Source of the DNA: Nitrososphaerota archaeon
GTDB lineage: Archaea; Thermoproteota; EX4484-205; JAAOZP01
Direction of reading: 5' to 3'
NCBI GenBank assembly: GCA_011605725.1
Contig: JAAOZP010000004.1
Span: 96,001-160,000 of the forward strand
Length of the DNA: 64,000 nt
Made by a program: the position numbers and the translations under genes
The notes under the pieces: generated by a model
Database searches by the model: none
What the model was told of the DNA's origin: nothing
What the model saw: only the letters and a program-made list of their open reading frames with translations
In this document: one piece after another, positions 1,261 to 62,342 of the stretch
Layout: every line of letters starts with the position of its first letter
Position numbering within the stretch: the stretch's first letter is position 1

Positions 1261-1884
1261 CTAGCGCATCCGCCGCCTTACGAATCCAATAATTTTCACC
1301 ATTATACTCCTGAGCCACCCTGTTTTCTCAACCCTCAGCTCTCCTTTAAAAACCATTTCTAAAACCCTACTGTAGGCCTCTGGGTTTCTTGAAGCAAGCA
1401 TGAGAAGCGTCTCTTCACGCAGCCTAGAGCCTTTAGGAGGAGTGGAACCGTTCTCAATGCTTTTTAAAAACTCTTCCTCGCTTTTCCCCGGGCCAACAAT
1501 ACTTGACACAAGGAGGGCAAGTCCTGCTGCGAAAAAAACCATAGGCAGCAAGTATTTTAACGGGTCTTTTTGAGAAGCCTCCCCCATATCCTCAATAATC
1601 GTTACCCCCGAGAGCTGGCTTGAAAGCCTTGAATCGTATTTAACGAGTAGCATGGAGCCCTGGACTAAGGTTTTAAGCGATTCAGGCCTGAAAACCGTTG
1701 AAGAAACGTTGTTGACTAAGCATAGTTCAACCAGCGTATTGTTATGAAGTAGGGCAGTGACACGTATTGAAGCAAGAGTCCCGTTTCCCTCTAGGGTGCT
1801 AGACGGGTTTGAACACGCGTTGAGACAAGTGTTGGCAAGCAGCGTCAAGAGAAACGTTAAACATGCTTTCACGCGCGCCGTCAA
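1261..1884 (-). CDS. Hypothetical membrane protein
   Basis: Signal-like N-terminus and one TM helix (YLLPMVFFAAGLALLVSSIV); start uncertain. Confidence 0.65.
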   Translation of the reverse strand: MTARVKACLTFLLTLLANTCLNACSNPSSTLEGNGTLASIRVTALLHNNTLVELCLVNNVSSTVFRPESLKTLVQGSMLLVKYDSRLSSQLSGVTIIEDMGEASQKDPLKYLLPMVFFAAGLALLVSSIVGPGKSEEEFLKSIENGSTPPKGSRLREETLLMLASRNPEAYSRVLEMVFKGELRVEKTGWLRSIMVKIIGFVRRRMR

Positions 1885-2034
1885 CCCATTTTAAACCTTG
1901 AAGAGAACCTAATAAGCCCCCATGCGTAACGGCATCAATCCGCCCATCTTATCCTCATCCTTACTCAGATTTTTGAGGCGGTTTTCATCTGCCGGAGAAT
2001 TCTATGCGGAAAAGGTATTTAAGCATTAAGCGTA

Positions 2035-2496
2035 TCACGGCTTTGAACCGGTCAGATTTAAAATCTGCCTTGAAATATTCCTCCAGTGTGAGCCCCTCCA
2101 ATACAGCTTGCCACACACCTTGCACCTCCAGAGTAGATCCACGTTCTTAGGAGCTTCAGGATTCTTCTCAGCTTCTTCAGGGGGAAGGGGTTCAAGCTCG
2201 CCATTGCAAACTGTGCATCTTAAAGAATCCTTTTGGAAAACCAGTTTAAACCTCTCCACCAGGAGTCTTAACACCTCCTCCTCCGTTAAGCCTTTGGTTA
2301 AAACTACTTCAACACCTTTTCTCTCAGCTATTTTCGCAAGCTCGTCGTCAGAAGTAACGAGTATACGGCCGTTTAAAGCGAGTTGAACAATATTTTCATC
2401 ATCAACAGTGTTCAGATAGAGAGTATCATAACCCATTATTCTAAGCCATTTGGCAACATAGCCATGCATGCTGTCAACTAGAAATTTCAGGCTCAA
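2035..2496 (-). CDS. Mut7-C RNase domain protein (PIN fold + Zn ribbon)
   Basis: FLVDSMHG..KWLRIMGYDT, VTSD, RCTVCNG, CKVCGKLYWRGSH. Confidence 0.9.
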   Translation of the reverse strand: MSLKFLVDSMHGYVAKWLRIMGYDTLYLNTVDDENIVQLALNGRILVTSDDELAKIAERKGVEVVLTKGLTEEEVLRLLVERFKLVFQKDSLRCTVCNGELEPLPPEEAEKNPEAPKNVDLLWRCKVCGKLYWRGSHWRNISRQILNLTGSKP

Positions 2497-3379
2497 TCCT
2501 GACAGCCTTTAGAAAATCCATTTCTGTTAAAAAGCCTTCCAGCGAGCCGGATTTAACTACTAGGGCAGACCCATAACTGCTCCTCTTTATTATCTCCCAA
2601 GCCTCAGCAATCCTGGCCTGCGGATCCAGAACAGGCGGATCCTTAACTGTGAAGTCGATAACGCTCATGCGCATAAGCTCGTCTAAAGTCTTTCCAGCAT
2701 GCTTGAAAAACTCCCTGCCGCCGAGAAACCTGATTATTGAGCGGGATGAGAATAGACCTATTGGCTTAGACTTCTCCAAGCATGGTAAACGCCTGTGTCC
2801 AGAGCTGACCATGACTTCAACGCCTTCTCTAAGACTCCTGTCAATCGAGATGCAAACCGGAGACTTAGACATGTAGTCTTCGACAAGCCCGCTTTCCAGC
2901 GAATAGTTACACCTTTCAAGCACATCCCTAACTGTCAACACGGCTTTAAGCCGGTTGCTCTTGTCAACTACTGCAAGACTGTTAACACTCCTCTCCCTCA
3001 TCAACGTTATTGATTCCCGAATGCTTTCAGACTGGAGTATGCTTACCACGTCCCTACTCATGATTCTAGCCACAGGTGTCGACATTATGCTCATAACAGG
3101 TGTTTCAGGAGATTCTCTAGACCTCCAAAGCAGGTGTTTAGCCACCTCCATGGGTGTTACGATCCCCTCTAGAAGACCGCTTGCCGCAGCTACGAAAACC
3201 CTCCTGAAGCCTCTTGCAACCATTGTTTCAAGCAGCCGTGACAAAGGCGTGGTCTTGGTTACTGAGAGCGGCGGGGAAGTAGCGTAGTATAGTACTGTCG
3301 AAGGCGAAGAGTACGACTGGACCCTCTTCCGAGGGCGGTCCTTCATGTATCTTAATCCTTTCTCCCTATTCCTGTTCAA
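2474..3379 (-). CDS. Multi-CBS domain protein
   Basis: Repeated CBS motifs (IMSRDVVSI, YMSKSPVCI, LEGFLTEMDFL). Confidence 0.85.
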   Translation of the reverse strand: MNRNREKGLRYMKDRPRKRVQSYSSPSTVLYYATSPPLSVTKTTPLSRLLETMVARGFRRVFVAAASGLLEGIVTPMEVAKHLLWRSRESPETPVMSIMSTPVARIMSRDVVSILQSESIRESITLMRERSVNSLAVVDKSNRLKAVLTVRDVLERCNYSLESGLVEDYMSKSPVCISIDRSLREGVEVMVSSGHRRLPCLEKSKPIGLFSSRSIIRFLGGREFFKHAGKTLDELMRMSVIDFTVKDPPVLDPQARIAEAWEIIKRSSYGSALVVKSGSLEGFLTEMDFLKAVRIEPEISS

Positions 3380-4730: not shown

Positions 4731-4960
4731 AAAAGTTTAACAGAAGCCTCCAGCAGGGTATTAATAAGGCTTATGCCAAGTTTGGAGAAACCCTTAGCAA
4801 CCCTTTTTCTCAACCTAAGAGCGTTAGCGCGCGAGCTTCTGAAGCCGAGGCTTTACGCTTTCAACCGCTTCTGCTGGTTCAGGCACGCTAACTATCTAAG
4901 CATGGACGATTCATACATTATTTTTAAAACAAGCGTGCTAGGAAGTGTGTGGGAATCCAG

Positions 4961-5428
4961 ATGGCTAGAGGTGGAGGAGAAATCCGTAGAAGACTCATGG
5001 AACTGGTGGAGAAGTTCAGGGAAAAAGGTGCACTTAGCCCTGAGAAAGCTTTGACCGCCCAAGAGTTGGGGTTGCCACCCTGGTTTGAGCAGGCTATGCA
5101 TCGAAGACTCGGCCAGCTAGGGATATTTGTTGAAGTTAATGGCAAATACTATCTTGATGAGGATAGGCTCAGAAAAATACAAGAGAGATATTTTAAAACC
5201 GAATATGGAGGCAGGACGCATAGCTGGTCTCGTTACCTATGGGTTCTCTTGATGTTGCCCATTGGACTCATAGTTTCACTTGCAATCTTCTACCTCCTGG
5301 TCTTGAGTGGAGCTAGGTTTTTCCCAGGGGAATTCCTGATGATTTTAACTATTGTCATGGTTGTTGTAGCCGTAATAAGAATTCTCTACTGGAGGTCGAG
5401 AAGGAGATATTGGCCTGGACAATGGTGA
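4961..5428 (+). CDS. Hypothetical membrane protein (winged-helix-like N-terminus, two TM helices)
   Basis: FREKGALSPEKALTAQELG..GKYYLDE followed by two hydrophobic helices. Confidence 0.7.
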   Translation: MARGGGEIRRRLMELVEKFREKGALSPEKALTAQELGLPPWFEQAMHRRLGQLGIFVEVNGKYYLDEDRLRKIQERYFKTEYGGRTHSWSRYLWVLLMLPIGLIVSLAIFYLLVLSGARFFPGEFLMILTIVMVVVAVIRILYWRSRRRYWPGQW

Positions 5429-5706
5429 GGAGAACATCAAGAGCAGGAGGAGTATTTAAGTTTAGTTGGCTATAAATGGACAAAAATCCGGTTTAGTGGT
5501 GCTACTGCTTTGGAAACATATTTTAGTGGTGCCTCGGCTTTCCTGAACCCCCCAAAGTATCCAGATAGTAAAAGCGAGTATATTAATGGATATGTTCAAT
5601 TTGAATCTAACTTTATCCCTGATCCATAGGCGTGGCTTAAAAACCAAATTCTAAACTTCTTTTTAACGCACGCTAACCTTCATACCCTCGAGGAGGTTGA
5701 AAAGGC

Positions 5707-5871
5707 TTGAGGATAGGCAGGTGTGCTAGATGCGGAAGAGAGCTTAAGCGGGGGGAGCCTAGGATCAGGGTGATTCTGAAGAACGGCAGGGAGGTCAACA
5801 AGACCTATTGCATGAGATGCTTCGACAGGGTCTCCAGAATCCACAGAGGTAACATTAATAAGGAAAAGTAA
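5707..5871 (+). CDS. Small C4 zinc-finger protein (54 aa)
   Basis: Below the ORF-track cutoff. TTG start after GGAGGT gives MRIGRCARCGRELKRGEPRIRVILKNGREVNKTYCMRCFDRVSRIHRGNINKEK with two CxxC pairs. Confidence 0.7.
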   Translation: MRIGRCARCGRELKRGEPRIRVILKNGREVNKTYCMRCFDRVSRIHRGNINKEK

Positions 5872-5889
5872 ACCATAATAAGGCTTAGG

Positions 5890-7948: not shown

Positions 7949-8230
7949 TTGAGCATCTCCTCTTTAAAAAACAGTATCGAGAAGAGAATTGAAGTTTCCA
8001 AAAAAAGATTAACAAAGTTTGAGAAGGCGAGGATAATAGGTTTAAGGGCTCTTGAACTATCTCTAGGCGCGCCCCCTTTGATACCTATTGATCAGGGTAG
8101 TAGGCTGAGTGCTGCCGAAATAGCAACGCAAGAAGTTGAGAGAAAGATTCTACCGCTGATAATCGGTAGAAGGATGCCTGACGGAAGCTATGTTTACGTG
8201 CCGTTAAGCGACTTGGAAATAGAGGATTAA
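7949..8230 (+). CDS. rpoK: RNA polymerase subunit Rpo6 (RpoK)
   Basis: LTKFEKARIIGLRALELSLGAP...IGRRMPDG. Confidence 0.95.
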   Translation: MSISSLKNSIEKRIEVSKKRLTKFEKARIIGLRALELSLGAPPLIPIDQGSRLSAAEIATQEVERKILPLIIGRRMPDGSYVYVPLSDLEIED

Positions 8231-14350: not shown

Positions 14351-15145
14351 TCAATCCTCGAGTTTTTTGACGCTCTCCAGCTTCTTACGTAAATCGTTAA
14401 GATAGCGCTTGCTTATCCCAGGTACTCCGAGGCGTTGAGCTTCCCTAACAGCATCCGCTCTTTTCTTAATTTCTTCTAGCAACTTGTCCTCGCTCATGCC
14501 GCTGGAATTGAATGCTGAGTAGAAGAAATCCCAATCCTCGTGTGGCTTCAGATAATGCTTTACTTCAAAGCCATATTTTCCGCTGATTCTTTCAGCAATC
14601 TCCCTGACGTATTTTATGTAGAGCGCTATCATCCGCAACAGGCTTAGGGTCCTGCGTAAACGTTTATCCTCCATATCTATGCATTCTTCGAAATCCTTGC
14701 CCTCAGACAGACCCATTATGATCTCTTCGGTTTTCTCTATCCATTTCTGCACGAGCTCATCATACTTCTTCTTGTCTCCAATTTTTTCGGCTTCCTTTAG
14801 TTCCCTATCGAAAAGCGGTTGTATGGCCAAACTTATATGGAAATTTATATCGACCATGCCTTGTGAATATATCTCTATAGCTCCATTCTCATGGGCTTCG
14901 ATATAAGAAGAAAAGCCTAAGAGAGTCCAAGCGACCAGCATGCCTGAGCTGTCTTTCTTAGCCTCAATCCATGCCTCAAGGATTGCTCGTGGCGGCGAAC
15001 CCACCAGTCCTTCCTTTTCATATTTAACAAAACCCCCCTCTTCAAACTTCTTAAAGTCTTCCAATCTAACCTTTCCCTCAGACAGAAGCTCTACTAACCT
15101 TCTAAGGAATCCGATACTAAACTTTCCCTTAGTCACTTCATTCAT
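14351..15145 (-). CDS. Hypothetical protein, putative immunity protein
   Basis: Start overlaps the upstream nuclease ORF stop (ATGA); charged and cytoplasmic; homologous fragment at 55712-55930. Confidence 0.6.
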   Translation of the reverse strand: MNEVTKGKFSIGFLRRLVELLSEGKVRLEDFKKFEEGGFVKYEKEGLVGSPPRAILEAWIEAKKDSSGMLVAWTLLGFSSYIEAHENGAIEIYSQGMVDINFHISLAIQPLFDRELKEAEKIGDKKKYDELVQKWIEKTEEIIMGLSEGKDFEECIDMEDKRLRRTLSLLRMIALYIKYVREIAERISGKYGFEVKHYLKPHEDWDFFYSAFNSSGMSEDKLLEEIKKRADAVREAQRLGVPGISKRYLNDLRKKLESVKKLED

Positions 15146-16185
15146 CCTCTCCTTGTTATCTCTATGTAAGGATTCTTATAATTACCAACACTTTCAGGCA
15201 TGCTTAAACCTTCCTCTGAAGATGACCATATGTCATAGTCGAGTACGAACAGGACACCATATCTTGCTGTCTCAGACTCCATAAGGAAATCCGTGAGCTT
15301 CTTTCTCCCTTTGTTAACCTGCAGGTCAAAAACTGTAGGATCATGAATCGCAGTGCCCTTAACCTCGACGATGGCAGTAACCTCGCCTTTCTTAAAAGGA
15401 TCCTCATATTTATCGGTTATATCCCATTTCGCTTCTATCTGAAAATCTGGACCCACATTGCCCGCCCAATTATGAAGCCTTCTCGCATCTACAGCATCCC
15501 TGGGAATTCCTGTCTCCTCACAGAATTTATTGAGGAGTAAATCCTTTTTTTTCTCTACCCATAATTCTACGACCTGCCCGATCAACTCAGTATTTTCAGG
15601 ATCGGACTTAAGCATATTAAGACAACCCGCAAGGTCGTTAACTGTATCCGCATACTTCAACACTTCTACGTAAGCTATTTTAGTCGCATCCTCGGGCACT
15701 TTGACCGTCAATCGAGGATTAAAGCAATATGCATACTTATATTCACCATATTTATCGACAAAGCACACTATTAGAACCAACCTCTCTTTGAACTCAACAT
15801 TTTTATCTACCTTCTCAAGCCCCTGAACATAATAGCCGCTTAGAAAGATACGCTCTTTCAAACCTATGTCTTGATGTCCCTCGACGTTGCTAACGTCGTC
15901 AGCTATTTCTAATCTTTGAGGAACAATTATGTCTCTTCCGACAATACATGTAAACACATTTATATCATTTCCCATCCGATACTCAATAATCCATCGTCCC
16001 TTGTATACTTTAATACTACTAATAGGATGCGCTATAGGCTTATGCACGTACACTCTTCCGTCTTCATAAAAGGTGAAGATAATTGGTTCGCCATAAATAT
16101 CCTTAGCTCCTGTTACCACATCAAGAGCAGCCCCCCTCTCAGAGTTTCTAAGGTTCCAAGATTCCACCGGGATTTCGTTTAACAT
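15142..16185 (-). CDS. PD-(D/E)XK nuclease-like domain, probable C-terminal part of a polymorphic toxin
   Basis: GPDFQIEA...AIVEVKG...QV..G..KL..F; frame is open upstream (YNKIKAYDESDR) as far as the (GC)5 tract at 16222-16231. Confidence 0.65.
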   Translation of the reverse strand: MLNEIPVESWNLRNSERGAALDVVTGAKDIYGEPIIFTFYEDGRVYVHKPIAHPISSIKVYKGRWIIEYRMGNDINVFTCIVGRDIIVPQRLEIADDVSNVEGHQDIGLKERIFLSGYYVQGLEKVDKNVEFKERLVLIVCFVDKYGEYKYAYCFNPRLTVKVPEDATKIAYVEVLKYADTVNDLAGCLNMLKSDPENTELIGQVVELWVEKKKDLLLNKFCEETGIPRDAVDARRLHNWAGNVGPDFQIEAKWDITDKYEDPFKKGEVTAIVEVKGTAIHDPTVFDLQVNKGRKKLTDFLMESETARYGVLFVLDYDIWSSSEEGLSMPESVGNYKNPYIEITRRG

Positions 16186-16207
16186 CCTATCAGATTCATC
16201 GTATGCC

Positions 16208-19200
16208 TTAATCTTGTTGTAGCGCGCGCGCTAATATTCCTTCAGCACAATCTTTAGGCATCCAGAATTGACTCGACTTCGTATCCTTTCTAAATGAGAA
16301 TTCTACGACTCCTTTCTTACCCCCATACTCCCAATAGATCTTCGCCTTATATATCCCAGGTCCAACATCATTTCCTTTCCCCAAGCTCAACATAGCTCCA
16401 TCTCCCTTTTCCAACGTAACTTCACGTAACCTTTCCCAAGATACTTTATAATATTCTATACTACTTATCTTAGCTACTAGTTTATCTAGCACATCAGGAT
16501 TCTCGAGAACAGTAGTTAAGAAAATACCAGCAACATTTTCATCATACTTACCTTTAATGTCGAAATAGTTATCAATAATTTTCCCTATTTTAATCCCAAC
16601 TCCTTTCCTTGCATCTCCTTTTATCATTATCAGAATTTCATCTAGGGCTTTTATCTTGTCAGGGTCTTTTGTATTCTTGTTAAGCCAATTGTTCAAAGAT
16701 TCTATTGCATCGTCACCATCCTTAATCCACATCGAAACTATACTCCTTACGATTATCCCACCTTTTCCCTGAAACTCTTCTAGAGAATAATGCTTTATGA
16801 TCGTGCTAATTGCATTTAGTATCCTGCCTGAGCTTTCTACACTCGGAACGTTTTCTAAAGTGTGTTTTGAGATTTCCGAAGCTGTTTCAAGGATATCTTC
16901 AATCTTTGAAGGATTGTTTATTCTCTTTATTAGATCTCCAACGACGTCTCCGAACTTTCTGCTGTACTTATTCCCAAGTAAAAGGTCAACAACCTTGTGG
17001 AACGATGGCTTTAGCCTCAGCACCAATACATCAAATATTGCTGGGGTTATCCAGTTCCAAATCCCCCTGCCTACGATTCTGAGCACGTCCTCAACGCTAA
17101 GCGGCTTGCCTCCTGCTTTCTCAGCCCTTATCCTGTTGACCACCGCGTAGAAGGTAGTGACATATGCTGCGCAACTAACTATCGCTCCGACAACCCTTCC
17201 AGTGGCGTATCCGATTCTATAATCCCTATCTTTCGTCGAAGGAGGTTCCTTCAACCCGAAGGCTATTCTTATCTCATCCCATGAGACGTCTAGAGCCAGG
17301 TCTGAGAGCACGTTGGAGAGGAGGTTATCGTTAATATCCTTGGCTTCTAGCCTGAATATTTGGGAAAGCTCGAACAGCTCGTTAGCATGCTGGGCCATGC
17401 CGATTTCATTGAACTCCTTGCTCCTGCCCTCGCAGACATCTGCAATTTCGTTAAACGAGTCCATTGCAGCCAACGCGTTGTGGACATCTGTCCAGATTTC
17501 AGCTATGTTCATCGCTATACCAGTGGCGAGGATTGCTGGCGATGCTGCTACAGCCCACTTAGGCGGGAGAACGAAGCCGACAACAATCATTATTCCGCAA
17601 GTAACTATTATCCCCCATCCCTTTGAGACGAAGCCGTCCCAGAAGCCCCTCCAGAACATAGGCAGCTCGCCACTTCTAAAGCTCGCTTGAAGAGTTGCAA
17701 CAACCCTACCCCCGTGCTTCAAGTTAATGAAGATCGGATATTCTGCATCTTCCTCAAGTTGGACTAGGTGTAATGGGATCGAGCCGAATGCTGGAACGCT
17801 AATAGCATGCTCCTCCGGAATTCTCGCCGGCCCAGCGAAGACCTCTAGCTCATATTCCGCGTTGCATGCAGCATAGTTTCTTATCAATACCCCTTGTACT
17901 AAATCGCCCCCGCCATATGCAAGAGGATGGTAAATGAGTTCTATCTCTTTTCCATGCGAGCCTCTTGTCGCTGCTTTATCCAAGTCCCACCTAGTCTCTC
18001 CGGTATCCTCGTATTTGTAATCGTGGTCTTCCCACCCATTGTACTTTAGCCATTCATAGAATTCACCATTAACCGTTATGACTTCGCTCTGGTTCAGCAC
18101 CTCTTCCTTTAGCAGCTTAACCTCGTAATTGGAAGGTATCTTGCTTGGCTCAAGCCTATCATCCTCCAGGATACCGAGTAGCTTCTTAACCTCATCCTCA
18201 TGGAGTATTCTCTCATAGAGGAAACCTGGCTTGACATCGATCAACGCATATCTAACGTTCAGCGTCTTAGTCATTTTCGAGATATCGCTGACATTCTCAA
18301 TTGTCGATGTGAAACCATCAGGCGAAATAGGGATCAGCTCTACTCCATTGAAATCTTGGAGATACCCCGGCGCCATATCCGTCGTCATGAAGTATAACTT
18401 AACATGCGTAGCCCCTTGGTACCCTGGTACGAAGACCCTCTTGGTCTCATTGTAGCCCTCAACGTTTACAACATAAGTTCTCCATTCCTCCGGGGCAACG
18501 AAGCTCATGGTTGAGATCGTTGTTAACGCTGTGGATATGTATCTCTTTCCTTCTTCATCACAATAGACTGCTGTGATGTTGAGCTTGGCGATGGGAGAAA
18601 GGAGCTTCGTTAATATATTCTTCGACCATAAGCCAACGATGGCTCCGATTTCCAGCTCCTTTCTATCAACGTCTCCAGTTATGAGCAGCTTGACGTCTCT
18701 CGCCTTCCGTCCTCCCTTATTGAGAAGGGTTATTGTGAGGTTTGCGTACTTCGCTATCACTTGGCTTGAAAGCTTAACCTCAAGCCTCGGAGGCTCAGGT
18801 AGAACCTCTATGGTGTAGGTTACGGTCTTCCCCCCGTTCCAGAACACTAAATCCAAGTTGCCCGGCTGAACAACAGCAAAATAGACCGTAATCTTGTAAA
18901 CCCCAGGTTTCTTGGCTTTCAGGTAAAGCGGAGCGATGCGTGTAGGGCTTGGGAGTGGAGCCCATGTCTCAAACGCGTCACTATCGGAGAACCTAACACC
19001 CAGCAAGATTTCGTAGCTTCCTCGGATCTCCTGAGGATTCCTTATTTGGGCTGTTATCGTTATCGTATCACCGATCCCAACTTTGGTTGATGAGATTGTT
19101 GTATCAACTATTATTGGGTCGTAGGCTGGGAGGAGAACCCTGAACTCGCTTATTTGAGATTGCATGGCTTCGCGTGTTTCCTCAAAGTGACTCGGGACTG

Positions 19201-19879
19201 CGATGAGAAAATTTTCAGCAAAGTAGCCTTGGCTCAGGTTTGAGAATAGCCCTATTTTCATCCTAGCGGTCTTGTTAAGTATTTTACCGGTCTCTAGATC
19301 GATGAGGGTGAAGGTGTATGAATCAGGGTCGATGTGCCTGACTAAGTATGTCCTCTTCTTAGGATACCTATGAAGAATGTGGAAGACATTAGTTCCATTG
19401 CTTTCATATTTTATAGAGCTTACATCTTCCTCACTTCCATCCTTACCAATTGCCTTATAGGAGATTTCTACGGAGACGCTTCCATCGCTGCCTCTACGAA
19501 TATAGATTTTCTCATACTCGGGGATTATCGTGTAATCCTTAAGATCATAGTCTATTCGAGTCGGTAGCTTCAGAGTATTGTTAGCACTTTTTATGGTTCG
19601 ACGTATCTCCTCTTCTAAGCTTCCAATGGAAACCAGTTGAGCTATGAAGAACCAGAGCCTCTGCGCAAGCTCAACGGGAAAGCCCTCAGGCACTATGAAG
19701 CATGCCTCGGTTATCGAGCTGCTCGGCACCTTCCCCTTCCTTAATTCCTCCTCTATGAACTTTAATGCTGTTAGAGCATCCGTTTCCTCCGTGGCGTATG
19801 CCCTAAGGGTTAGAGCAGCGCTGAAGTTGGAGGTTAATATCAGGATTGCCAGGATTGCGGCTGATGCTTTCCTAAGCAT
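16208..19879 (-). CDS. Large secreted multidomain protein, N-terminal part of a probable polymorphic toxin (frameshifted at 16222-16231)
   Basis: Signal peptide; Ig/CARDB-like beta domains (NLTITLLNKGGRKARDV); Gly/Ala-rich hydrophobic helices (FWRGFWDGF, GYATGRVVGAIV). Confidence 0.7.
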   Translation of the reverse strand: MLRKASAAILAILILTSNFSAALTLRAYATEETDALTALKFIEEELRKGKVPSSSITEACFIVPEGFPVELAQRLWFFIAQLVSIGSLEEEIRRTIKSANNTLKLPTRIDYDLKDYTIIPEYEKIYIRRGSDGSVSVEISYKAIGKDGSEEDVSSIKYESNGTNVFHILHRYPKKRTYLVRHIDPDSYTFTLIDLETGKILNKTARMKIGLFSNLSQGYFAENFLIAVPSHFEETREAMQSQISEFRVLLPAYDPIIVDTTISSTKVGIGDTITITAQIRNPQEIRGSYEILLGVRFSDSDAFETWAPLPSPTRIAPLYLKAKKPGVYKITVYFAVVQPGNLDLVFWNGGKTVTYTIEVLPEPPRLEVKLSSQVIAKYANLTITLLNKGGRKARDVKLLITGDVDRKELEIGAIVGLWSKNILTKLLSPIAKLNITAVYCDEEGKRYISTALTTISTMSFVAPEEWRTYVVNVEGYNETKRVFVPGYQGATHVKLYFMTTDMAPGYLQDFNGVELIPISPDGFTSTIENVSDISKMTKTLNVRYALIDVKPGFLYERILHEDEVKKLLGILEDDRLEPSKIPSNYEVKLLKEEVLNQSEVITVNGEFYEWLKYNGWEDHDYKYEDTGETRWDLDKAATRGSHGKEIELIYHPLAYGGGDLVQGVLIRNYAACNAEYELEVFAGPARIPEEHAISVPAFGSIPLHLVQLEEDAEYPIFINLKHGGRVVATLQASFRSGELPMFWRGFWDGFVSKGWGIIVTCGIMIVVGFVLPPKWAVAASPAILATGIAMNIAEIWTDVHNALAAMDSFNEIADVCEGRSKEFNEIGMAQHANELFELSQIFRLEAKDINDNLLSNVLSDLALDVSWDEIRIAFGLKEPPSTKDRDYRIGYATGRVVGAIVSCAAYVTTFYAVVNRIRAEKAGGKPLSVEDVLRIVGRGIWNWITPAIFDVLVLRLKPSFHKVVDLLLGNKYSRKFGDVVGDLIKRINNPSKIEDILETASEISKHTLENVPSVESSGRILNAISTIIKHYSLEEFQGKGGIIVRSIVSMWIKDGDDAIESLNNWLNKNTKDPDKIKALDEILIMIKGDARKGVGIKIGKIIDNYFDIKGKYDENVAGIFLTTVLENPDVLDKLVAKISSIEYYKVSWERLREVTLEKGDGAMLSLGKGNDVGPGIYKAKIYWEYGGKKGVVEFSFRKDTKSSQFWMPKDCAEGILARALQQD

Positions 19880-20912
19880 TCCCTTCGCCTCCCGGCTTAC
19901 CTAGGGTTCTCCATCTCAGGAGTATGATGAGCAATGAGACCGTTGAGACAGCCAACGAAGATGCTAAGAGCCTCATGATGCTTAATTCTTCAGCAAGCCT
20001 TTCATTTTCCCTAGTCTTCTCTGAAACCATCTCCTGGTATTCTTTGAGAGAGACCCTTAGAAGAGCCGTGGTATTCTTCTCTATCTCCAGCTTATCCCTT
20101 GATGCTCTTAGCTCAACCTCGGAACTATTCAACATAATCCGAAGCCGCTCATTCTCCTCCTTCGACTCAAGGTGTTTTGAGAATGGGTTTCGTCGAGCTC
20201 AATAATCAGCGTCGCCGTTAGATTCGGTGCTTTGATGCTTAGCAAGAGCTTAGCCGGCTCCTTAAGCCCAGAGAACCTTGACCACTCAATTCTCGTTTCG
20301 TACAGTCCCTTCTCGCATACAACCTTACAATCCTCGATTAGAGATTCCACTCGGAGCGTTGCCCCCACCTCAACGCTATTGCATGGAGCGATTATTTTGA
20401 AGGAGATTTTTAGAGCATCTTCATCTATGAAGATAGAATTCGGAACTATCTCGATGAAATCAATAACCTCTTCGCCTTCAACCTTTATCATCGCCTGTCC
20501 CTCTTTGAAACTTCTTACCCCCTGTCTATAGCAGTCTATCAAGAAGCAGTTACCCGAAATAGTGTCGTTATCCACGGCTATCCAGAGCTGAGTCCCATTA
20601 AAGTCGAGCATGGGGTAAACGCAGACGTAGAAATCGCCCCTTATGGTTACGTTGGGCGCGCGCGGGGCGGGTAGCGTTTAATGGCCAGTTTACTGGGAGA
20701 AATGGGCGAATAAAGATCACTGCAAACGTTAAGAGGAATGGCGATGCTTCGGCGTAAATTTCGTTTACCAGCGGGTAAACACTATTTACCTTCGAGCAAA
20801 CAACATTTACCTTCAGTGGGCATTTGTCTACGTGCCCAGCGACTCCACGCATCTTTGAAACGGCTTTAATGGCTAAAAGGAAGATGCACAATGCTTTCCA
20901 TGGCCTAGCCAC
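19872..20912 (-). pseudogene. Secreted/membrane-anchored accessory gene broken into three ORFs
   Basis: ORFs 20598-20912, 20129-20611 and 19872-20135 join by two frameshifts: at the GC tract 20656-20664 (PNVTIRGDFYVCVYP reads into MLDF) and near 20190 (NPFSKHLESKEENERLRI reads into MLNS). Signal-like start, then coiled coil and C-terminal TM. Confidence 0.65.
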
Positions 20913-21339
20913 TATGCTAGTGTGCTCTAATAATTATAATTACTGATTCTGAAATCCTTTATCACATTGTTTATCAGATTTTTAGTACTCATAACCACCC
21001 GGGTTCTAAGAATTATAAAAACGTTAATTACTACATGGACCAGTGCGCACGGCAGCCCTGTTTTTAGCACATAGAGTCACCACTTTCCAGCTCGGGGAGT
21101 AACTTTAATCAGCCATATCGCCAGAGAGTTTTTTAGCGTATGCTCTGCAAAATGAGTAGGCTAGTGTTCCAGACAGATATTGATACATTCTGCAAGAGAG
21201 TTCCAAGAAGCATTTTTGGCGAGATACAGATTTCATCCCGGAGAAACTAAAAGAAATCTAATGATAAAAGCCGACATTAAGGTTTGGTTTTAAACTAAAG
21301 CAAAATGTCACATAACAGGAGACATAACGCTTGCTTCTA

Positions 21340-21375
21340 AGGGTAAACCTTTATCACGGGCATAGCTTAACCCTC
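21340..21375. repeat. Direct repeat copy 2 (pheS end + relic pheT start MPVIKVYP), right island boundary
   Basis: agggtaaacctttatcacgggcatagcttaaccctc. Confidence 0.9.
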
Positions 21376-22838: not shown

Positions 22839-22913
22839 CCTCCTACACCTATCGTTTAAACGTGCACAAGCAGTTTTTAAATTTGAAACCTTAATAATTC
22901 CTATTGGAGAAAT

Positions 22914-24710: not shown

Positions 24711-24773
24711 GCCGCGCTGCAAGTCGAGAAGCATATTGAAAACCTCTGTTTTGAAGCATTAAGCGTTCTTATA

Positions 24774-25868: not shown

Positions 25869-26064
25869 TTCTCAGCAACCCTCATTTTCACCTAGCGTTC
25901 TGTTCCTCATTAAAAATTAAGCGAAAAGCCTGAAGAACTCTTGGAAAGGGTTCCTGAACAAGAATAATTAGCGCATATTAAAGGCGGTTATTTTTAGATA
26001 AAGAGAAACTATTATAAATACAGGCTGATCCATCTGCGAATGTTAGAAGCTTAGAAGTGGGAAC

Positions 26065-27252: not shown

Positions 27253-27328
27253 AGCAAAAACCCTTGACTAACATGGTTAACGGGCTAGAGAAATAGGTTT
27301 AAATCATCCCTTCAAAGCATTATTCTCA

Positions 27329-27736: not shown

Positions 27737-27836
27737 GCCTGCTTCTCGAAGCCTTACTCCACCCTCTTTCAAAGCATTAAGCTTGAAAAACGCCAAGAAT
27801 ATTAATCTTGCGAAACACGTAAGGAGGCTGGGAATA

Positions 27837-28673: not shown

Positions 28674-28781
28674 AAGGCTGGACAACCCTAAGTAGAGACT
28701 TTGAGAAGGTTTCAGGCATATGGTGCTAGGTGGAATACTGGAAGTTAAGCTTATAAATAAGGGTTGAGGCGACACTTCGAG

Positions 28782-35963: not shown

Positions 35964-35967
35964 GAGA

Positions 35968-36462: not shown

Positions 36463-36795
36463 ATATGCCTTAAAAACCTGCTTGAAAATCAGAGTCAATG
36501 CTCCTTGACCACTAGTCGAGGAAGCAAGAAATAAATACGATATTCCTAAGCTAAGTAATCATGGCAAATACGAATTCAAACGAGGTTTTAGCGCGCGCGC
36601 CATGTGGATCGTTTACTACTTATACTGGACAATAGTTCGCAGAAAAGCCTTCTTAAGGTATGGAGCAAGAAACGGGGGAGAAAAACGGGTTTAGGACGGA
36701 AAAATTTAGTATATATTTTTAGCTGAAATCTTATTTTAATTCACAATAACTAACCAATAGATTTACAAGCCCGAGTCGCATAGAAAGTTAGTGTC

Positions 36796-44011: not shown

Positions 44012-44755
44012 ATGCAGCGTTTCCACACCACGAGAGGGTTAAGGAAGACTCCACTAACACTGCTAGTCTGGATACTACTCGCACACATATTAGTCTCAGT
44101 CCCGGGGAAAGGTGAAACAGCGGAATACGATTTCCCCAGGGTTAATATTCTTGAAGGAGACATATTCATAGTAACGTTTAGCCCTCCGGCGGAGAATATT
44201 CAAGTATACGTTAAAGGATCGGAGACGAAAGACTTTTCCCTCCTAGTGTTGACGAACAGTAGTCTCAACATACCTATTTTAACAGGACGCGCCTCGATTG
44301 TGCAGCTCATACCTCAGTCTCCAGTTACAAACCTCACGGTAACATTCAACTCAAACACTAGTCTGAAAATAATCTACGGCATCTTAACAGGAAACTACAC
44401 TTACTATAGGCAGGTTTCTTCAGAATACTATACTTTCTCAAACGGCATTCTCGTGATTCTCCAGCCGCAGATAACTATTCCTCGAGGCCCTTCGAAAATA
44501 ACTTTTATTCTAAACAGGTTTGGCGTCAAGAGTTCAAGCGGGTTTCCGATAGAACTGCCCCCATTGGCTACATTGATTCCTTTCATTGCGGTAGTAGCAA
44601 TACTTGCCTACTTGAATGCTTACGTCCTCGTAGACTCTTATTACTTATCTAAAAGAGAAGAGTTGGGCAGACTTAGGAAAATAGGCATAGTTCTTCTCAT
44701 AGTTTTGAGCGCGCTTATAATATACTGGTTGTTGAACAACTTCGTTAAATACTGA
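44012..44755 (+). CDS. Hypothetical membrane protein
   Basis: Signal-like N-terminus and two C-terminal TM helices. Confidence 0.7.
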   Translation: MQRFHTTRGLRKTPLTLLVWILLAHILVSVPGKGETAEYDFPRVNILEGDIFIVTFSPPAENIQVYVKGSETKDFSLLVLTNSSLNIPILTGRASIVQLIPQSPVTNLTVTFNSNTSLKIIYGILTGNYTYYRQVSSEYYTFSNGILVILQPQITIPRGPSKITFILNRFGVKSSSGFPIELPPLATLIPFIAVVAILAYLNAYVLVDSYYLSKREELGRLRKIGIVLLIVLSALIIYWLLNNFVKY

Positions 44756-51560: not shown

Positions 51561-52541
51561 ATGAAGTATGTTATAGGTATTGATGGTGGAGGAACTAAGA
51601 CTCAGGCGGCGCTTCTGAAGCTTAACGGGGAAATAGCTTCCCACGATGAAACAGGGCCCTCTAACTATCATAATGTTGGAGTGGAGCAGGCTAGAAGAAC
51701 ACTTGAAGAAGCCTGTGTGAAAGTGATTAGGAAAGCAGGTGTGGACGTGGGAAGCGTCGGGATCATCGTAGCATCACTCGCAGGGCTTGACTGCAGCCTA
51801 GATTTTAAAGCTATGCAGAACGCTTTAGAAGGGTTTCCCATAGGTAGCATAACACTCGTGCACGATTCTATGGCTGCGCTTTACGCTACCAACGCAGGCA
51901 GGGAGAGCGCAATAATAATAGCTGGAACAGGCTCTGCTACAGCCGGCATAAACAGCCGGGGAGAGTATGCTAGAGCTGGCGGATGGGGGTATATTCTTGG
52001 AGACGAGGGAAGCGGCTTCTACCTGGCTAAAAGGGGAATCGTAGCAGCACTCCTAGAATACGAGGAGAGAGGACCGAAGACCATGATAACAAGCCTCCTG
52101 CTGAAAAGGTTCAACGCTAAGACTCCTGACGAAATAATATGGCACGTGTACACGGGTGGGATGAACATTACGGAGTTCGCCAGACTGGCTCCACTCGTGA
52201 CCGAGGCCGCTATGAAAGGGGATGATGTTGCCATAAGCATTCTGCGGGATGCTGGGAGAGAGCTTGCGAACACTGTCAACGGGGTGATCAGGAGGCTTAA
52301 AATGGAGGGTGACGAGTTTCCAATAGGATTGATCGGCGGGGTCTTTAAAGCCGGCAGGCTTGTAACCGGGCCCCTGGAGGAGGCTGTGCACAAGGTTGCT
52401 CCGAAAGCCTACTTAACATATCCCAGGTTCCCGCCGGTAATAGGCTCATCCCTGATAGCGCTGGAGAAAGCAGGCGTGAAAATAAGCGACGAGATCCTTG
52501 CCAATACGCAGAGGACGTTGAGAGAGCAAGGCTTACAATAG
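51561..52541 (+). CDS. BadF-type N-acetylglucosamine/amino-sugar kinase
   Basis: GIDGGGTKT, IAGTGS, RAGGWGYILGDEGSG, GGVF. Confidence 0.88.
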   Translation: MKYVIGIDGGGTKTQAALLKLNGEIASHDETGPSNYHNVGVEQARRTLEEACVKVIRKAGVDVGSVGIIVASLAGLDCSLDFKAMQNALEGFPIGSITLVHDSMAALYATNAGRESAIIIAGTGSATAGINSRGEYARAGGWGYILGDEGSGFYLAKRGIVAALLEYEERGPKTMITSLLLKRFNAKTPDEIIWHVYTGGMNITEFARLAPLVTEAAMKGDDVAISILRDAGRELANTVNGVIRRLKMEGDEFPIGLIGGVFKAGRLVTGPLEEAVHKVAPKAYLTYPRFPPVIGSSLIALEKAGVKISDEILANTQRTLREQGLQ

Positions 52542-52589
52542 CGCGCTAATAAGCTGCTGTTTCGAATTCCTGATACTAGAGTGCAGCTG

Positions 52590-55665: not shown

Positions 55666-55706
55666 TTAAAAAGGCGATATTCCCTTAGGCAGACTAATCA
55701 TCTCGT
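55666..55706 (-). pseudogene. Relic duplicate of the flxA 3' end
   Basis: Encodes EMISLPKGISPF*, versus EMLELPRGISPF* at 56007-56045. Confidence 0.75.
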
Positions 55707-55711
55707 CGCGC

Positions 55712-55930
55712 GCTAGGAGGGTTAGCGAAAAACATAGCTTAGAAGTCGAGTTCAGAATAGATACTGAATCGGGTTTCTTCATAACCTTCGACTCAACCGG
55801 GATGGGCGACGAGCAGTTAATCAACAAGGTCATGAAAAGAATTGATGCAATCGCTGAGGCAAGAAGGATGTTTCTAAGCGAGTGGATGATGAACAGGTTC
55901 CTAAAGGGTAAAGGAATAGAGGTTAAGTAA
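55712..55930 (+). pseudogene. 5'-truncated homolog of the putative immunity gene at 14351-15145
   Basis: ARRVSEKHSLEVEFRIDTESGFFITFDSTGMGDEQLINKVMKRIDAIAEARR aligns with AERISGKYGFEVKHYLKPHEDWDFFYSAFNSSGMSEDKLLEEIKKRADAVREAQR; no start codon for the homologous part. Confidence 0.75.
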
Positions 55931-56006
55931 GAAGCGCGAAGCTCCGCTAAAAAACAAATCCTAGCCACAGGTTTCCGTCGGGAATACTGAGAGACCATGC
56001 GCTTTA

Positions 56007-56828
56007 TCAGAATGGAGAGATGCCTCTGGGCAGTTCCAACATTTCGCTATATTTGAAAACCGGACCGTCTAGACAGATGTGCTTCCTTCCGAAGTGGCAG
56101 TGTCCACATTTACCCACTCCACACTTCATTTTGCTCTCTAGAGAGGCGTAAATATTCTCCTTAGAGTATCCTAGTTCAACGAGTTTTTTCAAGACGAACC
56201 GTATCATCACCGGCGGACCGCATGTGCAGACTACCGTATCAGCCCTATTAAGCTTAGGCTTATCTAGGATTGTTGTCACAACGCCGACGTTACCTTTCCA
56301 GTCTCCCTCGCCCACGTCGACGGTTAGATGGAGGTCAACCCCACGCCTAATCCATTCTTCAAACTCGTCTCTATACATGAGGAGCGATGGAGACCTAGCT
56401 CCGTAGCAAACAGCGATCTCCCCATAATTATTCTTGTTTTCAAGAAGGTGGAGGATTAACGACCTAAGAGGCGCGAGCCCTATGCCTCCTCCTACCAATA
56501 GGATGCTCCTCCCCTCCATCTCTTTAACCGGCCAACCTCTCCCGTAGGGGCCCCTTACACCAATTTCCTCACCCTCCGAAGCCTCGTGTATAGCGCTTGT
56601 AACACTGCCCATCCTCCTGATGCTGAACTGTAAACGATCCTTGTCGAAAGGAGACGAGCATATGGAGAACGGGGCTTCGCCAACCCCGTAGACGGTGAGC
56701 ATTGCGAACTGGCCTGGCGCAAAGCTTTCGAAAAGGTTTGGGCTCAGCGTAAACGTTTTAGTATCGGGAGTCTCATCTTTAATCCTGATTATCCTAACAG
56801 GCTTAGGAGCATACGGGTTTAACCCCAT
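56007..56828 (-). CDS. flxA: FAD/NAD-binding oxidoreductase (FlxA/AsrB/HydG family)
   Basis: PGQF, GEAPFS, RGPYGRG, GGGIGLAP, CGPP.M, MKCGVGKCGHC, CLDGPVF. Confidence 0.88.
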   Translation of the reverse strand: MGLNPYAPKPVRIIRIKDETPDTKTFTLSPNLFESFAPGQFAMLTVYGVGEAPFSICSSPFDKDRLQFSIRRMGSVTSAIHEASEGEEIGVRGPYGRGWPVKEMEGRSILLVGGGIGLAPLRSLILHLLENKNNYGEIAVCYGARSPSLLMYRDEFEEWIRRGVDLHLTVDVGEGDWKGNVGVVTTILDKPKLNRADTVVCTCGPPVMIRFVLKKLVELGYSKENIYASLESKMKCGVGKCGHCHFGRKHICLDGPVFKYSEMLELPRGISPF

Positions 56829-59069: not shown

Positions 59070-60962
59070 CTAGTCCTCCAGCATTGCGGAAACCATTGGG
59101 GCAAGCTGCTTCAGACCCCAGTTGCCGAGGATAATCGCTTCCTGAGGACACGCCGCCAAGCATGCTCCACACCCGTTGCAAACACTCTCGAGAACCCTGA
59201 CTTTATCTCCCTCTCTAACTATGGCACCGTACTCGCACGACGTTAAGCATCTTCCGCAGCCGGTACACTTCTCCAAGACCCTGGCGTAATCCGGAAGCCT
59301 AAGGCTGCCCCTCCTGAAGAGACCTGTAACAAGCGCAGCTGCACCACTCCCCTCCACAGCGCTTTCAACAATATCCTTTGGACCGTGACACGTGCCTGCG
59401 ACAAATATTCCCCTAACCCTTGTTTCAAGCGGCTTCATCTTAGCATGAGACTCCTCGATGAAACCGTTCTTGTCAACAGTGACGCCCAGTCTCTCAGCGA
59501 GTTCAAGCATTCTCCTGGAAGGCTTAAAGCCGAGTGCTAGGACAACCATGTCCACCTCCAGCTCACCCCTAACACCTGTTAAAGTATCCTCGTAGACTAT
59601 CAGAAGATTCCCGTTTCCAGCCCTCCTTATCTCAGACGGCCTCGACCTTATGAAGACAACACCATCCTCCAGACACCTCCTGTAGAGAAGATCCTCCCAG
59701 CCTTTCCCGAATGCTCTAAGCTCGTTGTAGAATATGAAGACCTTGGCCTCCTTGTCGTGCTCAAGGATCAGCCTAGCCTCCTTCATGCTTGCAGCGCAAC
59801 AGTAGTATGAGCATTCCTCTATCCCGGCTCCGGACTCCCTAGACCCGACGCACTGTATGAAAGCCACCTTTTTAACAGGCTTCCCATCCCTCTTAAGGAG
59901 GATTCCCCCGGTTGGGCCTGAGGCACATATTATTCTCTCAAACTCCATGTTCGTTATAACGTTCTCATACTCCCCGTAGTGATACTCGGGTTTAAGACGA
60001 GGGTTGAAAAGGTCTGAGCCGACTGCGACAACTATGGCTCCAACGTTCAGCTCAACACTCTTAGGCTTATCCTCAAGGTTTATCGCAGCCCTTGTGCAAG
60101 CCTTCATGCATAGCCCGCATTCAACACAGTAGTCCCTGTTTATCACGTATTTCAAGGGTACGGCTTGCGCGAACGGACAGTATATCGCTTTAACAGGCTT
60201 AAGGTCAGCGTCATACTTGTTAGGCTGGTAGACGGGACACACGTTAACACACTCCCCGCAGCCGTTACACTTATCCGGGTCAACATACGTAGGGTTAACC
60301 CTGACCCTAACCTTGAAGTCGCCAACCTTACCCTTTACCTCAACAACCTCAGCGTTAGGAATAATAGTGATATTCTTATTCCTGCCCGCTTCCGAGAGAA
60401 GCGGCCCCTCCACGCAGATCGAACAATCTAAAGTTGGAAACGTCTTATCCAGCTGAGCCATCACGCCACCTATGCTGGGCTCCTTCTCAACAATGTATAC
60501 ACGGTAGCCGGCGTCAGCAATGTCTAGAGCACACCTGACCCCTGCTATTCCTCCCCCTATGACGAGCGCCTCCTTAACAATCTTCAAACCCTCCGTGCTA
60601 ATAGGCTCAACGTGCAGAGCCTTCTGAACAGCCCCCTTCACAAGGCGGATTGCTTTCCAAGTTGCTTCCTCCCTGCTTCCACAAGCCCAGGCGCAATGCT
60701 CCCTTATGTTTACGAACTCCACGAGGCCCATGGAGCCTTTGAAAACAGCTTCAAGAAGCCTGTTTGAGCATGCTGCGACGACAATCCTACCGTCAGCCTC
60801 CAGGCTAAGACTTTCATAAACATTCTTCTCGCAGAGAGCATCTGAAACCAGAACCCTGCGCACCAGAGGATTATCTGAAAAAACGTTTCTAAGCTTTTCG
60901 AAATCCATTTTCTCCAGCAGGGTCGAGTAGCAGGTGCATAGCACGAGTGTCACACGTCTCAA
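59070..60962 (-). CDS. hdrA: Heterodisulfide reductase subunit A
   Basis: NIREHCAW, VIGGGIAG, LDKTFPTLDC, QCVGSR, CS..CC, GPKDI. Confidence 0.95.
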   Translation of the reverse strand: MRRVTLVLCTCYSTLLEKMDFEKLRNVFSDNPLVRRVLVSDALCEKNVYESLSLEADGRIVVAACSNRLLEAVFKGSMGLVEFVNIREHCAWACGSREEATWKAIRLVKGAVQKALHVEPISTEGLKIVKEALVIGGGIAGVRCALDIADAGYRVYIVEKEPSIGGVMAQLDKTFPTLDCSICVEGPLLSEAGRNKNITIIPNAEVVEVKGKVGDFKVRVRVNPTYVDPDKCNGCGECVNVCPVYQPNKYDADLKPVKAIYCPFAQAVPLKYVINRDYCVECGLCMKACTRAAINLEDKPKSVELNVGAIVVAVGSDLFNPRLKPEYHYGEYENVITNMEFERIICASGPTGGILLKRDGKPVKKVAFIQCVGSRESGAGIEECSYYCCAASMKEARLILEHDKEAKVFIFYNELRAFGKGWEDLLYRRCLEDGVVFIRSRPSEIRRAGNGNLLIVYEDTLTGVRGELEVDMVVLALGFKPSRRMLELAERLGVTVDKNGFIEESHAKMKPLETRVRGIFVAGTCHGPKDIVESAVEGSGAAALVTGLFRRGSLRLPDYARVLEKCTGCGRCLTSCEYGAIVREGDKVRVLESVCNGCGACLAACPQEAIILGNWGLKQLAPMVSAMLED

Positions 60963-61708
60963 CGCTTAACCATCCTCCTACGCAGCGTTTCCGGGAACCC
61001 TATCTGAACAGGGTCTGAACCCAGCGAGAACGCTGAAAGCTGGGCGAGATGGAGAACAGGAATCCGGCTTACCGGGTTCAGTCGAAGCATGCAGTGCGAA
61101 CATGTTGCGACGATGCAGTCTGCCCCAGCCTCCTCCGCCGAACCCGCCTTCAACCTAGCCATTTCCCCACTAATCTTCTCGTCTGAAACAAACCCGCCGC
61201 AACAGTCGAGCTCACGCTCGTAAGACACGGGAAGAAACCCAAGCATTTCAAGAACACTCTTAACAATCTTAGGATCCTCAGGATTATCCAAGCTTCTTCC
61301 AGAGGATCTTAGAAAACGACAACTGTGCTGAACCGCACACCTTAAACCTGTGAAGCCAAGCCGCGGCTTCACCTCTCTAAGCCTCTCCAGCAGCAGTGCT
61401 TGAAAGGGCTTCACCTCAGGAGGCTTAACACTCTTTCTCTCAGCGAGAATCGTGAAAGCGTCGCTAAGACTTGCGAAACAATCGTCGCAAGCCGTTACAA
61501 CAGTACTGTTTAAAAGCCTCATGTTCCTCTCGTTAAGCCTGAGCCAAGCCTCCCTGCTCAGGGAGAAGAACCAGCATGGGGCGCAGCATGACGCCTCAGG
61601 CTGCTCGACGAATGAGACACCTATCCTGCTAAGAGTCTCCTTAACAGCCTTCTCAACCTCAGGGTGGACAGTCCTTATGACGCAGCCCAAGTACAGGGTT
61701 AGACTCAT
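60959..61708 (-). CDS. hdrB: Heterodisulfide reductase subunit B-like (two CCG domains)
   Basis: Y.GC, SCC, AC..C; HSC, CCGG, TC..C. Confidence 0.85.
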   Translation of the reverse strand: MSLTLYLGCVIRTVHPEVEKAVKETLSRIGVSFVEQPEASCCAPCWFFSLSREAWLRLNERNMRLLNSTVVTACDDCFASLSDAFTILAERKSVKPPEVKPFQALLLERLREVKPRLGFTGLRCAVQHSCRFLRSSGRSLDNPEDPKIVKSVLEMLGFLPVSYERELDCCGGFVSDEKISGEMARLKAGSAEEAGADCIVATCSHCMLRLNPVSRIPVLHLAQLSAFSLGSDPVQIGFPETLRRRMVKR

Positions 61709-62151
61709 TTGAAACCAGCCTCCGACAGGATTCTACGGATCTCTCTTAAACCCTCGCTGCTCACACCAGCCTCAGGCAGTCCCAAGAGCCTCCTCTTCTC
61801 AACAGACCCTGGTGTAAACGGGAAGGCTAAGCCCGTCTCCTTCACCTGCTCAACCATCTTAAGGATGCTTGCAGGAGCCTCACCATTATTCTCATACAGG
61901 ACTTCTCTAAGAGCCATAATTATGCTGAAAGGGTTAACACCCTGGGGGCATCTTTCAGAACACAGGGAGCAGGTTGAGCAGAGCCACGGATCCTGGTCTG
62001 GAATCCTGTTGAACCTGGCTATTGATCCAACAATCCTGCGAGGATTGAAACCGTCACGGATAAGGTTAACTGGACAGGTGGAGGTGCATGAGCCGCACTG
62101 AATACATTTAAGAGGATTCCCTGCTCCCTTACTTCTTAACGTTTCAATCAA
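61705..62151 (-). CDS. hdrC: Heterodisulfide reductase subunit C
   Basis: CIQCGSCTSTCP, WLCSTCSLCSERCPQGV. Confidence 0.9.
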   Translation of the reverse strand: MIETLRSKGAGNPLKCIQCGSCTSTCPVNLIRDGFNPRRIVGSIARFNRIPDQDPWLCSTCSLCSERCPQGVNPFSIIMALREVLYENNGEAPASILKMVEQVKETGLAFPFTPGSVEKRRLLGLPEAGVSSEGLREIRRILSEAGFK

Positions 62152-62342
62152 TTCCTTTTTACCGTTTTCCTAGCGGGCTCAAACCTGTTTAAATATTTTG
62201 AGAAGCACCGCCGTTTCTAAACGGCAAATGCTTCAAGAGCATGCTCAGCCCCGAAAAACGGTTTAATACAGGACTTATATGGTTCGACATATGCCTGGGC
62301 CGCTGTCGCAATCAACAGCATCACCCGTAGCGCGCGAGAAAG

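Follow-up and report, generated by a model that had tools for sequence, protein, structure and literature searches.

Alternating G/C tracts as putative filler at rejoined DNA ends of a Brockarchaeota genome, and a primase-like gene family with a linked RNA as their candidate source

The window analyzed here, a stretch of 64,000 nucleotides (G000:C4:96001-160000, on contig JAAOZP010000004.1), belongs to a hot-spring archaeon represented by a Ca. Brockarchaeota metagenome-assembled genome (MAG; assembly G000, 2.23 Mb in 20 contigs, 93% complete) and is archaeal DNA, as can be deduced from its genes for a thermosome, archaeal PheRS subunits, an HdrA-like protein and a Lon-type AAA protease. The gene labels used in the initial annotation (toxin, accessory gene, flxA and immunity gene) are hence unfounded, since the DNA is archaeal and the proteins concerned are hypothetical and without Pfam match. 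The present analysis deals with short alternating G/C runs in this window, for which the orthologous regions of same-genus genomes (among them G002, G007, G008, G010 and G016; relatives being 80-97% identical) were compared, and with a family of primase-like genes linked to an RNA element that may provide the template for writing such tracts at DNA breaks.

In total, 14 alternating G/C runs of at least 6 nt are present in the window. The coordinates listed previously all hold, with runs at 1872 (7 nt), 4827 (7 nt), 16222 (10 nt), 20656 (9 nt), 30923 (10 nt), 34612 (8 nt), 36591 (10 nt), 55707 (7 nt) and 62330 (7 nt) and the sequence TAGCGCGCTA at 33959 and 52539, and three 6-nt runs at 8067, 37023 and 44709 have to be added. 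The motif GCGCGCGC is found at five loci with eight overlapping matches; when the sequence was shuffled 100 times with dinucleotides preserved, the average was 0.34 and eight was never reached. From comparison with the relatives, the runs and the features associated with them are as follows (strand is indicated where one applies).

1872-1878: not a scar; 7-nt run in a conserved gene, resulting from point substitutions according to the alignment.
4774-5875: 1.1-kb insertion between 12-bp direct repeats TAATAAGGCTTA; six relatives are without it, G002 shares part of it.
8067-8072: not a scar; coding 6-mer resulting from one substitution according to the alignment.
15142-19879, minus strand: gene disrupted by the scar at 16222 and now a pseudogene; its hypothetical protein belongs to a multicopy family and matches no Pfam entry.
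16221-16232: scar AGCGCGCGCGCT, a 12-nt filler A(GC)5T in place of 125 nt of G002.
20656-20664: scar (G)CGCGCGCG; about 555 nt replaced, with 567 nt in G002 versus 20 nt in G000.
30921-30933: scar (GC)5, intergenic, standing for GCGTTGG of G002 and G016.
33959-33968: scar TAGCGCGCTA in a shortened intergenic region, where relatives have 198-576 nt.
34519-34655: insert of about 135 nt found only in G000, two fragments joined by (GC)4 at 34612-34619; four relatives are contiguous there.
36590-36600: scar A(GC)5 in place of 131 nt of G002.
37023-37028: not a scar; coding 6-mer resulting from one substitution according to the alignment.
44709-44714: not a scar; coding 6-mer identical in G010, G008, G016 and G002, with G007 one substitution off.
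52539-52548: scar TAGCGCGCTA, its TAG being the stop codon of the open reading frame (ORF) 51561-52541.
55705-56039: 335-nt insert found only in G000 and opening with the tract 55707-55713; G008 and G007 are contiguous there.
62319-62338: junction carrying TAGCGCGCGAG in place of 275 nt of G007 or about 1.3 kb of G002 and G016.

At 10 of the 11 sites listed previously, the tract stands where relatives carry other or longer sequence, and the claim that nearly all tracts lie in debris or at breakpoints is borne out at 10 of these sites as well, failing for the coding run at 1872. Most instructive are the positions 16222, 20656, 36591 and 62330, where the tract in G000 is opposed to 125, 567, 131 and 275 nt, respectively, in relatives. 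Neither the same-genus genomes nor near-identical strains show a GC tract at either edge of the missing segment. As the ancestral edges are free of tracts, the tract is new filler and not a reused microhomology, and the earlier alternative of universal microhomologies promoting deletions is consequently excluded at these four positions.

The individual junctions differ in what has been lost or captured. By the scar at 16222, one gene is split into ORFs of 1223 and 347 aa, in contrast to the intact 1617-aa ORF of the G002 ortholog. This family of about 1600-aa proteins lacking a Pfam match has many diverged copies per genome, with loci in G002, G006 and G016. Position 20656, reported as the accessory-gene frameshift, is a true deletion joint, and the gene concerned is without Pfam match. 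At the right edge of the 33959 scar, G002 carries TAGCGCACTAGT, and the two fragments making up the insert at 34519-34655 both have no second copy in G000. In the intergenic region at about 36.5 kb, G016 and G008 possess their own, different TA(GC)4TA scars. The sequence following the 52539 scar, in a shortened intergenic region, is unlike that of every relative. Position 55707, previously interpreted as the joint between a flxA relic and an immunity gene, is actually the left joint of the 335-nt insert, of which bases 55714-56039 represent a fragment of a multicopy family, with five further places in G000 showing 75-83% identity to it. Within the 1.1-kb insertion at 4774-5875, which has small ORFs and the appearance of an integrated element, the tract at 4827-4833 marks the point where the G000 and G002 versions diverge.

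Evidence at the strain level was obtained from four hot-spring metagenomes, each from a different study (X1-X4), whose Logan contigs were compared over window positions 16150-36149. All four carry the unscarred 125-nt allele at 16222, with flanks about 99.7% identical, and at 20656 the X3 contigs, and those of X2 on one side, run on into the undeleted allele. The tract at 30923 is reproduced in an X3 contig, with the version of X1 and X2 being 4 nt shorter, and those at 33961 and 34612 are reproduced in X1, X2 and X3 (in X1 and X3 on long contigs). In X4, moreover, a separate deletion of 100 nt (20805-20904) is sealed by GCGCGCGCGCG, that is, (GC)5G. As independent contigs reproduce three of the tracts, have unscarred alleles at the two freshest sites and show a new event in X4, the tracts are real, recent, polymorphic and recurrent among strains. 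The segment 16150-21375 represents a strain-variable island, for which X3 shows a different arrangement (21375 and 16150 being joined through 1872 other letters), and breaks at 21333-21375 are seen in many contigs.

Throughout G000, alternating G/C runs show a length distribution far from geometric (223 runs of 6 nt, 108 of 7, 131 of 8, 35 of 9, 31 of 10, two of 12 and one of 16 nt), in contrast to AT, AC and GT runs, which fall off normally. The 309 runs of at least 7 nt share sequence only in their immediate flanks, and their consensus is the palindrome TA(GC)nTA. Of the (GC)4-5 runs, 85% are directly preceded by A and 84% directly followed by T. Runs of at least 7 nt avoid long ORFs, the median length of the spanning frame being 82 codons versus 365 at random positions. 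Removing the tract plus k bases restores the spanning frame at about 25 of the 309 sites with a 3-periodic signal, a test saying little because most tracts are intergenic. For annotation purposes, the tracts flag pseudogenes and recent rearrangements.

As to the enzyme that might be involved, G000 encodes, besides a separate PriS on contig C11 (377-aa frame, 65 bits), a second PF01896-positive ORF of 292 aa located directly after radA (C7:378918-379793). The 292-aa protein scores 31.5 bits against PF01896 (cut-off 26.8), covering only profile positions 3-64 of 163, and 29.1 bits in the whole-genome scan. Since a better-scoring PriS is present and most genomes of the genus lack the 292-aa gene, the latter is an accessory paralogue and not the replicative PriS of the cell. 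Across 30 family members, D112, D114, S162, G166, F167, H168, D220 and P221 are invariant (two Asp, then S-G-x-x-G-F-H, then D-P), corresponding to the catalytic motifs DxD, SGxGxH and a third acidic residue of archaeo-eukaryotic primases (AEPs), and these columns are invariant in A2 and A3, too. An AlphaFold2 model of the protein (predicted local distance difference test score 82, predicted template modeling score 0.81) was best matched by Foldseek to PriS structures from P. abyssi and P. furiosus in PDB (E 2e-9 to 7e-9), with eukaryotic Pri1 and LigD polymerase domains ranking next, and among the matches listed there are only primases and polymerases of the LigD/non-homologous end joining (NHEJ) type. 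From its motifs, the PF01896 profile and the fold, the 292-aa protein thus belongs to the AEP superfamily. PF09250, representing a PrimPol family, has no match in G000, and Ku (PF02735) was not found in this 93% complete genome either. No neighbor gene conserved across lineages was found for the family, with radA, uracil-DNA glycosylase-like, RNase_H_2-like and radical SAM genes among the neighbors, and a single weak and partial match to viral contigs indicates that it is not typically viral. At the G000 locus (C7:377418-381293), the end of radA lies within the start of the intact primase-like gene, and two small ORFs come after the latter; 2.1 kb downstream there is a GC tract, and 2.8 kb downstream another copy of the multicopy family whose fragment was inserted at 55714.

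Within the genus, presence of this gene goes along with tract abundance. Counts of A(GC)4T per genome are 118, 88, 70, 33, 32, 18, 16, 6, 3 and 3, then 0 in seven genomes, compared to 0-3 for the reversed control motif T(GC)4A. The three highest counts correspond to full-length genes (G000, G002 and G016), and those of 33, 32, 18 and 6 to a near full-length (G006) or a broken or partial gene (G007, G008 and G012). In the genus genomes with 0-3 motifs the gene was not found, among them G010, a genome no more distant from G000 than G007 and G008. The 292-aa AEP family accompanies the tract-rich genomes of the genus, G009 being the exception.

At the 3' end of the family genes and overlapping the end of the ORF, a conserved RNA element of about 110 nt is predicted. 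It consists, in this order, of the ORF-end segment, a small hairpin, a GAUGA/GUGAA box, a single-stranded stretch that resembles a template and ends in an A-run, and a stem-loop in which an 8-9-bp stem encloses a small helix and a loop pairing with the ORF-end segment, thereby forming a pseudoknot. The same architecture with different sequences recurs across the metagenome loci of the family, amounting to 550 kb in total. Fully complementary 8-bp outer stems are found in 13 distinct versions, the pseudoknot covaries (GUUACCC/GGGUAAC in 13 distinct sequences and CUCACCC/GGGUGAG in seven), and class-wise alignments show three to four compensatory pairs in each of three RNA classes. Pooling of all RNA classes for MAFFT and RNAalifold did not yield a structure, owing to misalignment. 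Stems on the coding strand contain G-U pairs, as expected of an RNA or a single-strand fold. Judged from this covariation, the element is a conserved RNA. GA-rich boxes (GUGAAA or GAUGA upstream of the stretch, and CGAUGAC in the internal loop, for example in L178:10050-10123) resemble k-turn or C/D-box motifs, and the analogy suggests an L7Ae-type partner. The window itself contains a relic of the element, which adjoins the region of frequent contig breaks mentioned above.

21026-21120, minus strand: degraded copy of the primase-gene 3' end plus RNA with an internal deletion (covariance model R1, 39.5 bits, E 3.8e-6).

This relic is present in G002 as well, the orthologous relic (L065) scoring 36.2 bits. 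The sole intact RNA of G000 (C12:18826-18936) is attached to a gene fragment. A further well-folded copy is found in G010 (L057, G010:C37:2920-3030), a genome with three motifs and without a detectable primase-like gene, where the stretch is mutated to GUGCUAAC.

The strongest argument for the RNA specifying the filler is that the repeat unit and flank of the tracts switch together with the template-like stretch. In Brockarchaeota, RNAs with ..GCGCUAAAAA (GCGCUA) are accompanied by A(GC)nT tracts, with A(GC)4T versus T(GC)4A at 88:1, 70:0 and 118:2. In the Bathyarchaeia MAG G041, in contrast, the RNA linked to a 43%-identical homologue reads ..CGCAUAAAA (CGCAUA); there, (GC)4 occurs 51 times in 383 kb versus 1.7 expected, and the flanks are reversed (21 T(GC)4A versus five A(GC)4T). 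Among the metagenome loci, those with a AGCUAGCUA stretch contain 11-13 (AGCT)n tracts in about 21 kb, compared to two in about 528 kb elsewhere, and a locus with a GCAUGCA stretch holds TTTGCATGCATGCAAA, a tract of the (GCAT)n type, with such tracts being almost confined to loci having GCAU in the stretch. The pooled base flanking (GC)n is A or T at 55:19 for GCU|A stretches and at 6:30 for CAU|A stretches. As read from these comparisons, both the repeat unit of the tracts and the base next to it change with the candidate template stretch from lineage to lineage. In L217 (1961-1977, stretch GGUGCAUAAAAC), a (TGCA)4 tract lies inside the loop of its own RNA, as if this element had been scarred by its own product.

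Considering these sequence comparisons together, the tracts are probably de novo filler at rejoined DNA ends, templated by an RNA and written by the primase-like enzyme, with the resulting tails then annealing. The initial annotation had already supposed addition during end joining, with a primase among its guesses, and both the new filler at insertion and deletion joints and the linked AEP family agree with that. Following a break, two ends would be joined while DNA is lost or a stray fragment is captured, and the tract would be the filler. The likely writer is a compact AEP (about 260-295 aa) acting with the structured RNA of about 110 nt from the 3' end of its own gene. In a first step, the template stretch would be copied onto each free 3' end, in Brockarchaeota from ..GCGCUAAAAA to 5'-(T)TAGCGC-3', and the GC part might then be lengthened by reiterative copying. 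The self-complementary tails of the two ends could subsequently anneal, and fill-in and ligation would result in the palindrome TA(GC)nTA. Beyond the single genome, we lean, somewhat less firmly, toward an AEP and a cis-encoded template RNA forming a ribonucleoprotein that writes self-complementary repeats on broken ends, a telomerase-like end joining present in Brockarchaeota, Bathyarchaeia and other uncultured archaea. A comparable signature, of which the initial annotation knew no description, was not found in the literature searched.

Telomerase consists of TERT and the telomerase RNA, and de novo addition of repeats at internal breaks is known. The proposed system resembles it in having a dedicated RNA with a short single-stranded candidate template beside a pseudoknot, and in variable numbers of short repeats on DNA ends, with the repeat sequence tracking the RNA across lineages. 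However, the protein has an AEP fold instead of the reverse-transcriptase fold of TERT, the RNA is cis-encoded and overlaps the 3' end of the protein gene, and the putative product is self-complementary and located at internal chromosomal joints rather than forming a cap. DRT10 is likewise a prokaryotic enzyme whose non-coding RNA dictates the synthesis of tandem-repeat DNA; it is a protein-primed bacterial reverse transcriptase active in phage defence (bioRxiv 10.1101/2025.10.16.682844), whereas the enzyme considered here is an archaeal AEP with putative products at genomic joints. To the AEPs of NHEJ (the LigD polymerase domain and the Methanocella polymerase, PDB 2r9l and 5dmu), the 292-aa protein is related by fold (Foldseek E about 5e-6 to 2e-5, TM about 0.45-0.56) and by its putative task of processing broken ends. 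Those enzymes, in contrast, work with Ku and a ligase and lack both an RNA partner and a fixed filler, while the closest fold matches here are replicative PriS and Ku was not found in G000. End joining by PrimPol/PriSL and by polymerase theta also makes or uses microhomology by 3' extension and leaves deletion and short-insertion scars (PMC11724360). However, these insertions are copied from nearby DNA or untemplated and vary from joint to joint, as opposed to one palindrome found genome-wide and matching an RNA.

Several observations weigh against templated writing by the primase-like enzyme. G009 has 16 motifs and no gene was found in this 89% complete genome. Conversely, G042 possesses gene and RNA (on a 3.4-kb contig) without enrichment of A(GC)4T (seven versus ten for the control), for which mis-binning is possible, and G023 encodes a homologue (30%) without recognizable RNA or enrichment. 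The full-length genes of G000 and G002 are accompanied by a degenerate RNA region (R1 15.9-18.3 bits), with the intact RNA lying next to a truncated gene copy. With gene and intact RNA being unlinked in G000, action in trans must be assumed. Moreover, TATGCGCATA, predicted for G041, has no match there, the enriched forms having at least three GC units, and the ATGA/TCAT flanks expected if copying went beyond the GC part show no clear enrichment in G000 (about seven of 618 flanks). As the stretch holds only GCGC, formation of (GC)4-5 requires reiterative copying to be assumed. The correlations span related genomes and neighboring sites and are thus phylogenetically non-independent, so that nominal statistics overstate them. 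In addition, a characterized PrimPol from a mobile genetic element barely used RNA templates with Mg2+ (PMC11724360).

An alternative is an untemplated break-repair filler, made by a polymerase or primase through terminal transferase activity or slippage plus hairpin fold-back, with the RNA serving regulation or assembly. Terminal transfer and microhomology-mediated joining are known for AEPs (PMC11724360), and both the tract lengths, ranging from three to eight units, and the mere GCGC of the G000 stretch would fit. This explanation is nevertheless unlikely, as it leaves unexplained why the repeat unit, (GC)n, (AGCT)n or (GCAT)n, and the flank switch with the RNA stretch. Rather improbable is a further reading in which the RNA is a guide recognizing the tracts for cutting or regulation, or in which the DNA of the locus rather than the RNA is copied. 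Due to the palindromic nature of the tracts, template and guide are indistinguishable by sequence alone; however, ancestral alleles are free of tracts at the deletion edges, indicating that the tracts are products and not prior targets, a separate writer would still be needed, and the G-U pairs in coding-strand stems fit an RNA or a single-strand fold.

The tracts might also be functional or selfish iterated palindromes, such as terminators, binding sites or elements of the HIP1 and REP/REPIN kind, propagating through insertion or gene conversion independently of any break. HIP1 of cyanobacteria and REP/REPIN sequences are iterated palindromes conserved or mobilized as units. Like these, the tracts are short palindromes, mostly intergenic, lineage-specific and present in hundreds of copies per genome. 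HIP1 and REP sequences, however, are not filler at deletion or insertion joints and have no linked template RNA, whereas the tracts sit at such joints, stand in for deleted sequence, connect unrelated fragments and disrupt ORFs. They are also absent from orthologous sites, with positions not conserved among the 80-97% identical relatives, and are polymorphic in length and position among near-identical strains, which makes this explanation very unlikely. An assembly or amplification artefact can hardly be credited at all: although the G000 allele at 16222 or 20656 does not appear in any of the four runs and contigs frequently terminate at tracts, tracts of this kind are found in many MAGs and metagenome contigs from different groups and assemblers, three from the window recur in independent assemblies with a new one in X4, and an artefact would not track a gene-linked RNA.

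Apart from the tracts, the HdrA-like ORF 59070-60962 differs between relatives at 60410/60411, where G002, G016 and G010 have about 1.6 kb extra compared to G000, G007 and G008. Possible explanations are an insertion, an intein-like element and an added domain.

If RNA-templated writing of filler by the primase-like enzyme holds true, this enzyme would join reverse transcriptases and viral replicases as a third type able to turn a dedicated cellular RNA into DNA, and the finding would bear on the repeated origin of telomerase-like chemistry. As the filler is seemingly set by few letters of the RNA, programmable writing at breaks would be conceivable as well. For archaea lacking Ku, such writing would provide a new route of double-strand-break repair and would explain deletion, shuffling and capture of gene fragments in these genomes, with the tracts serving as a readable time-stamp of past breaks.

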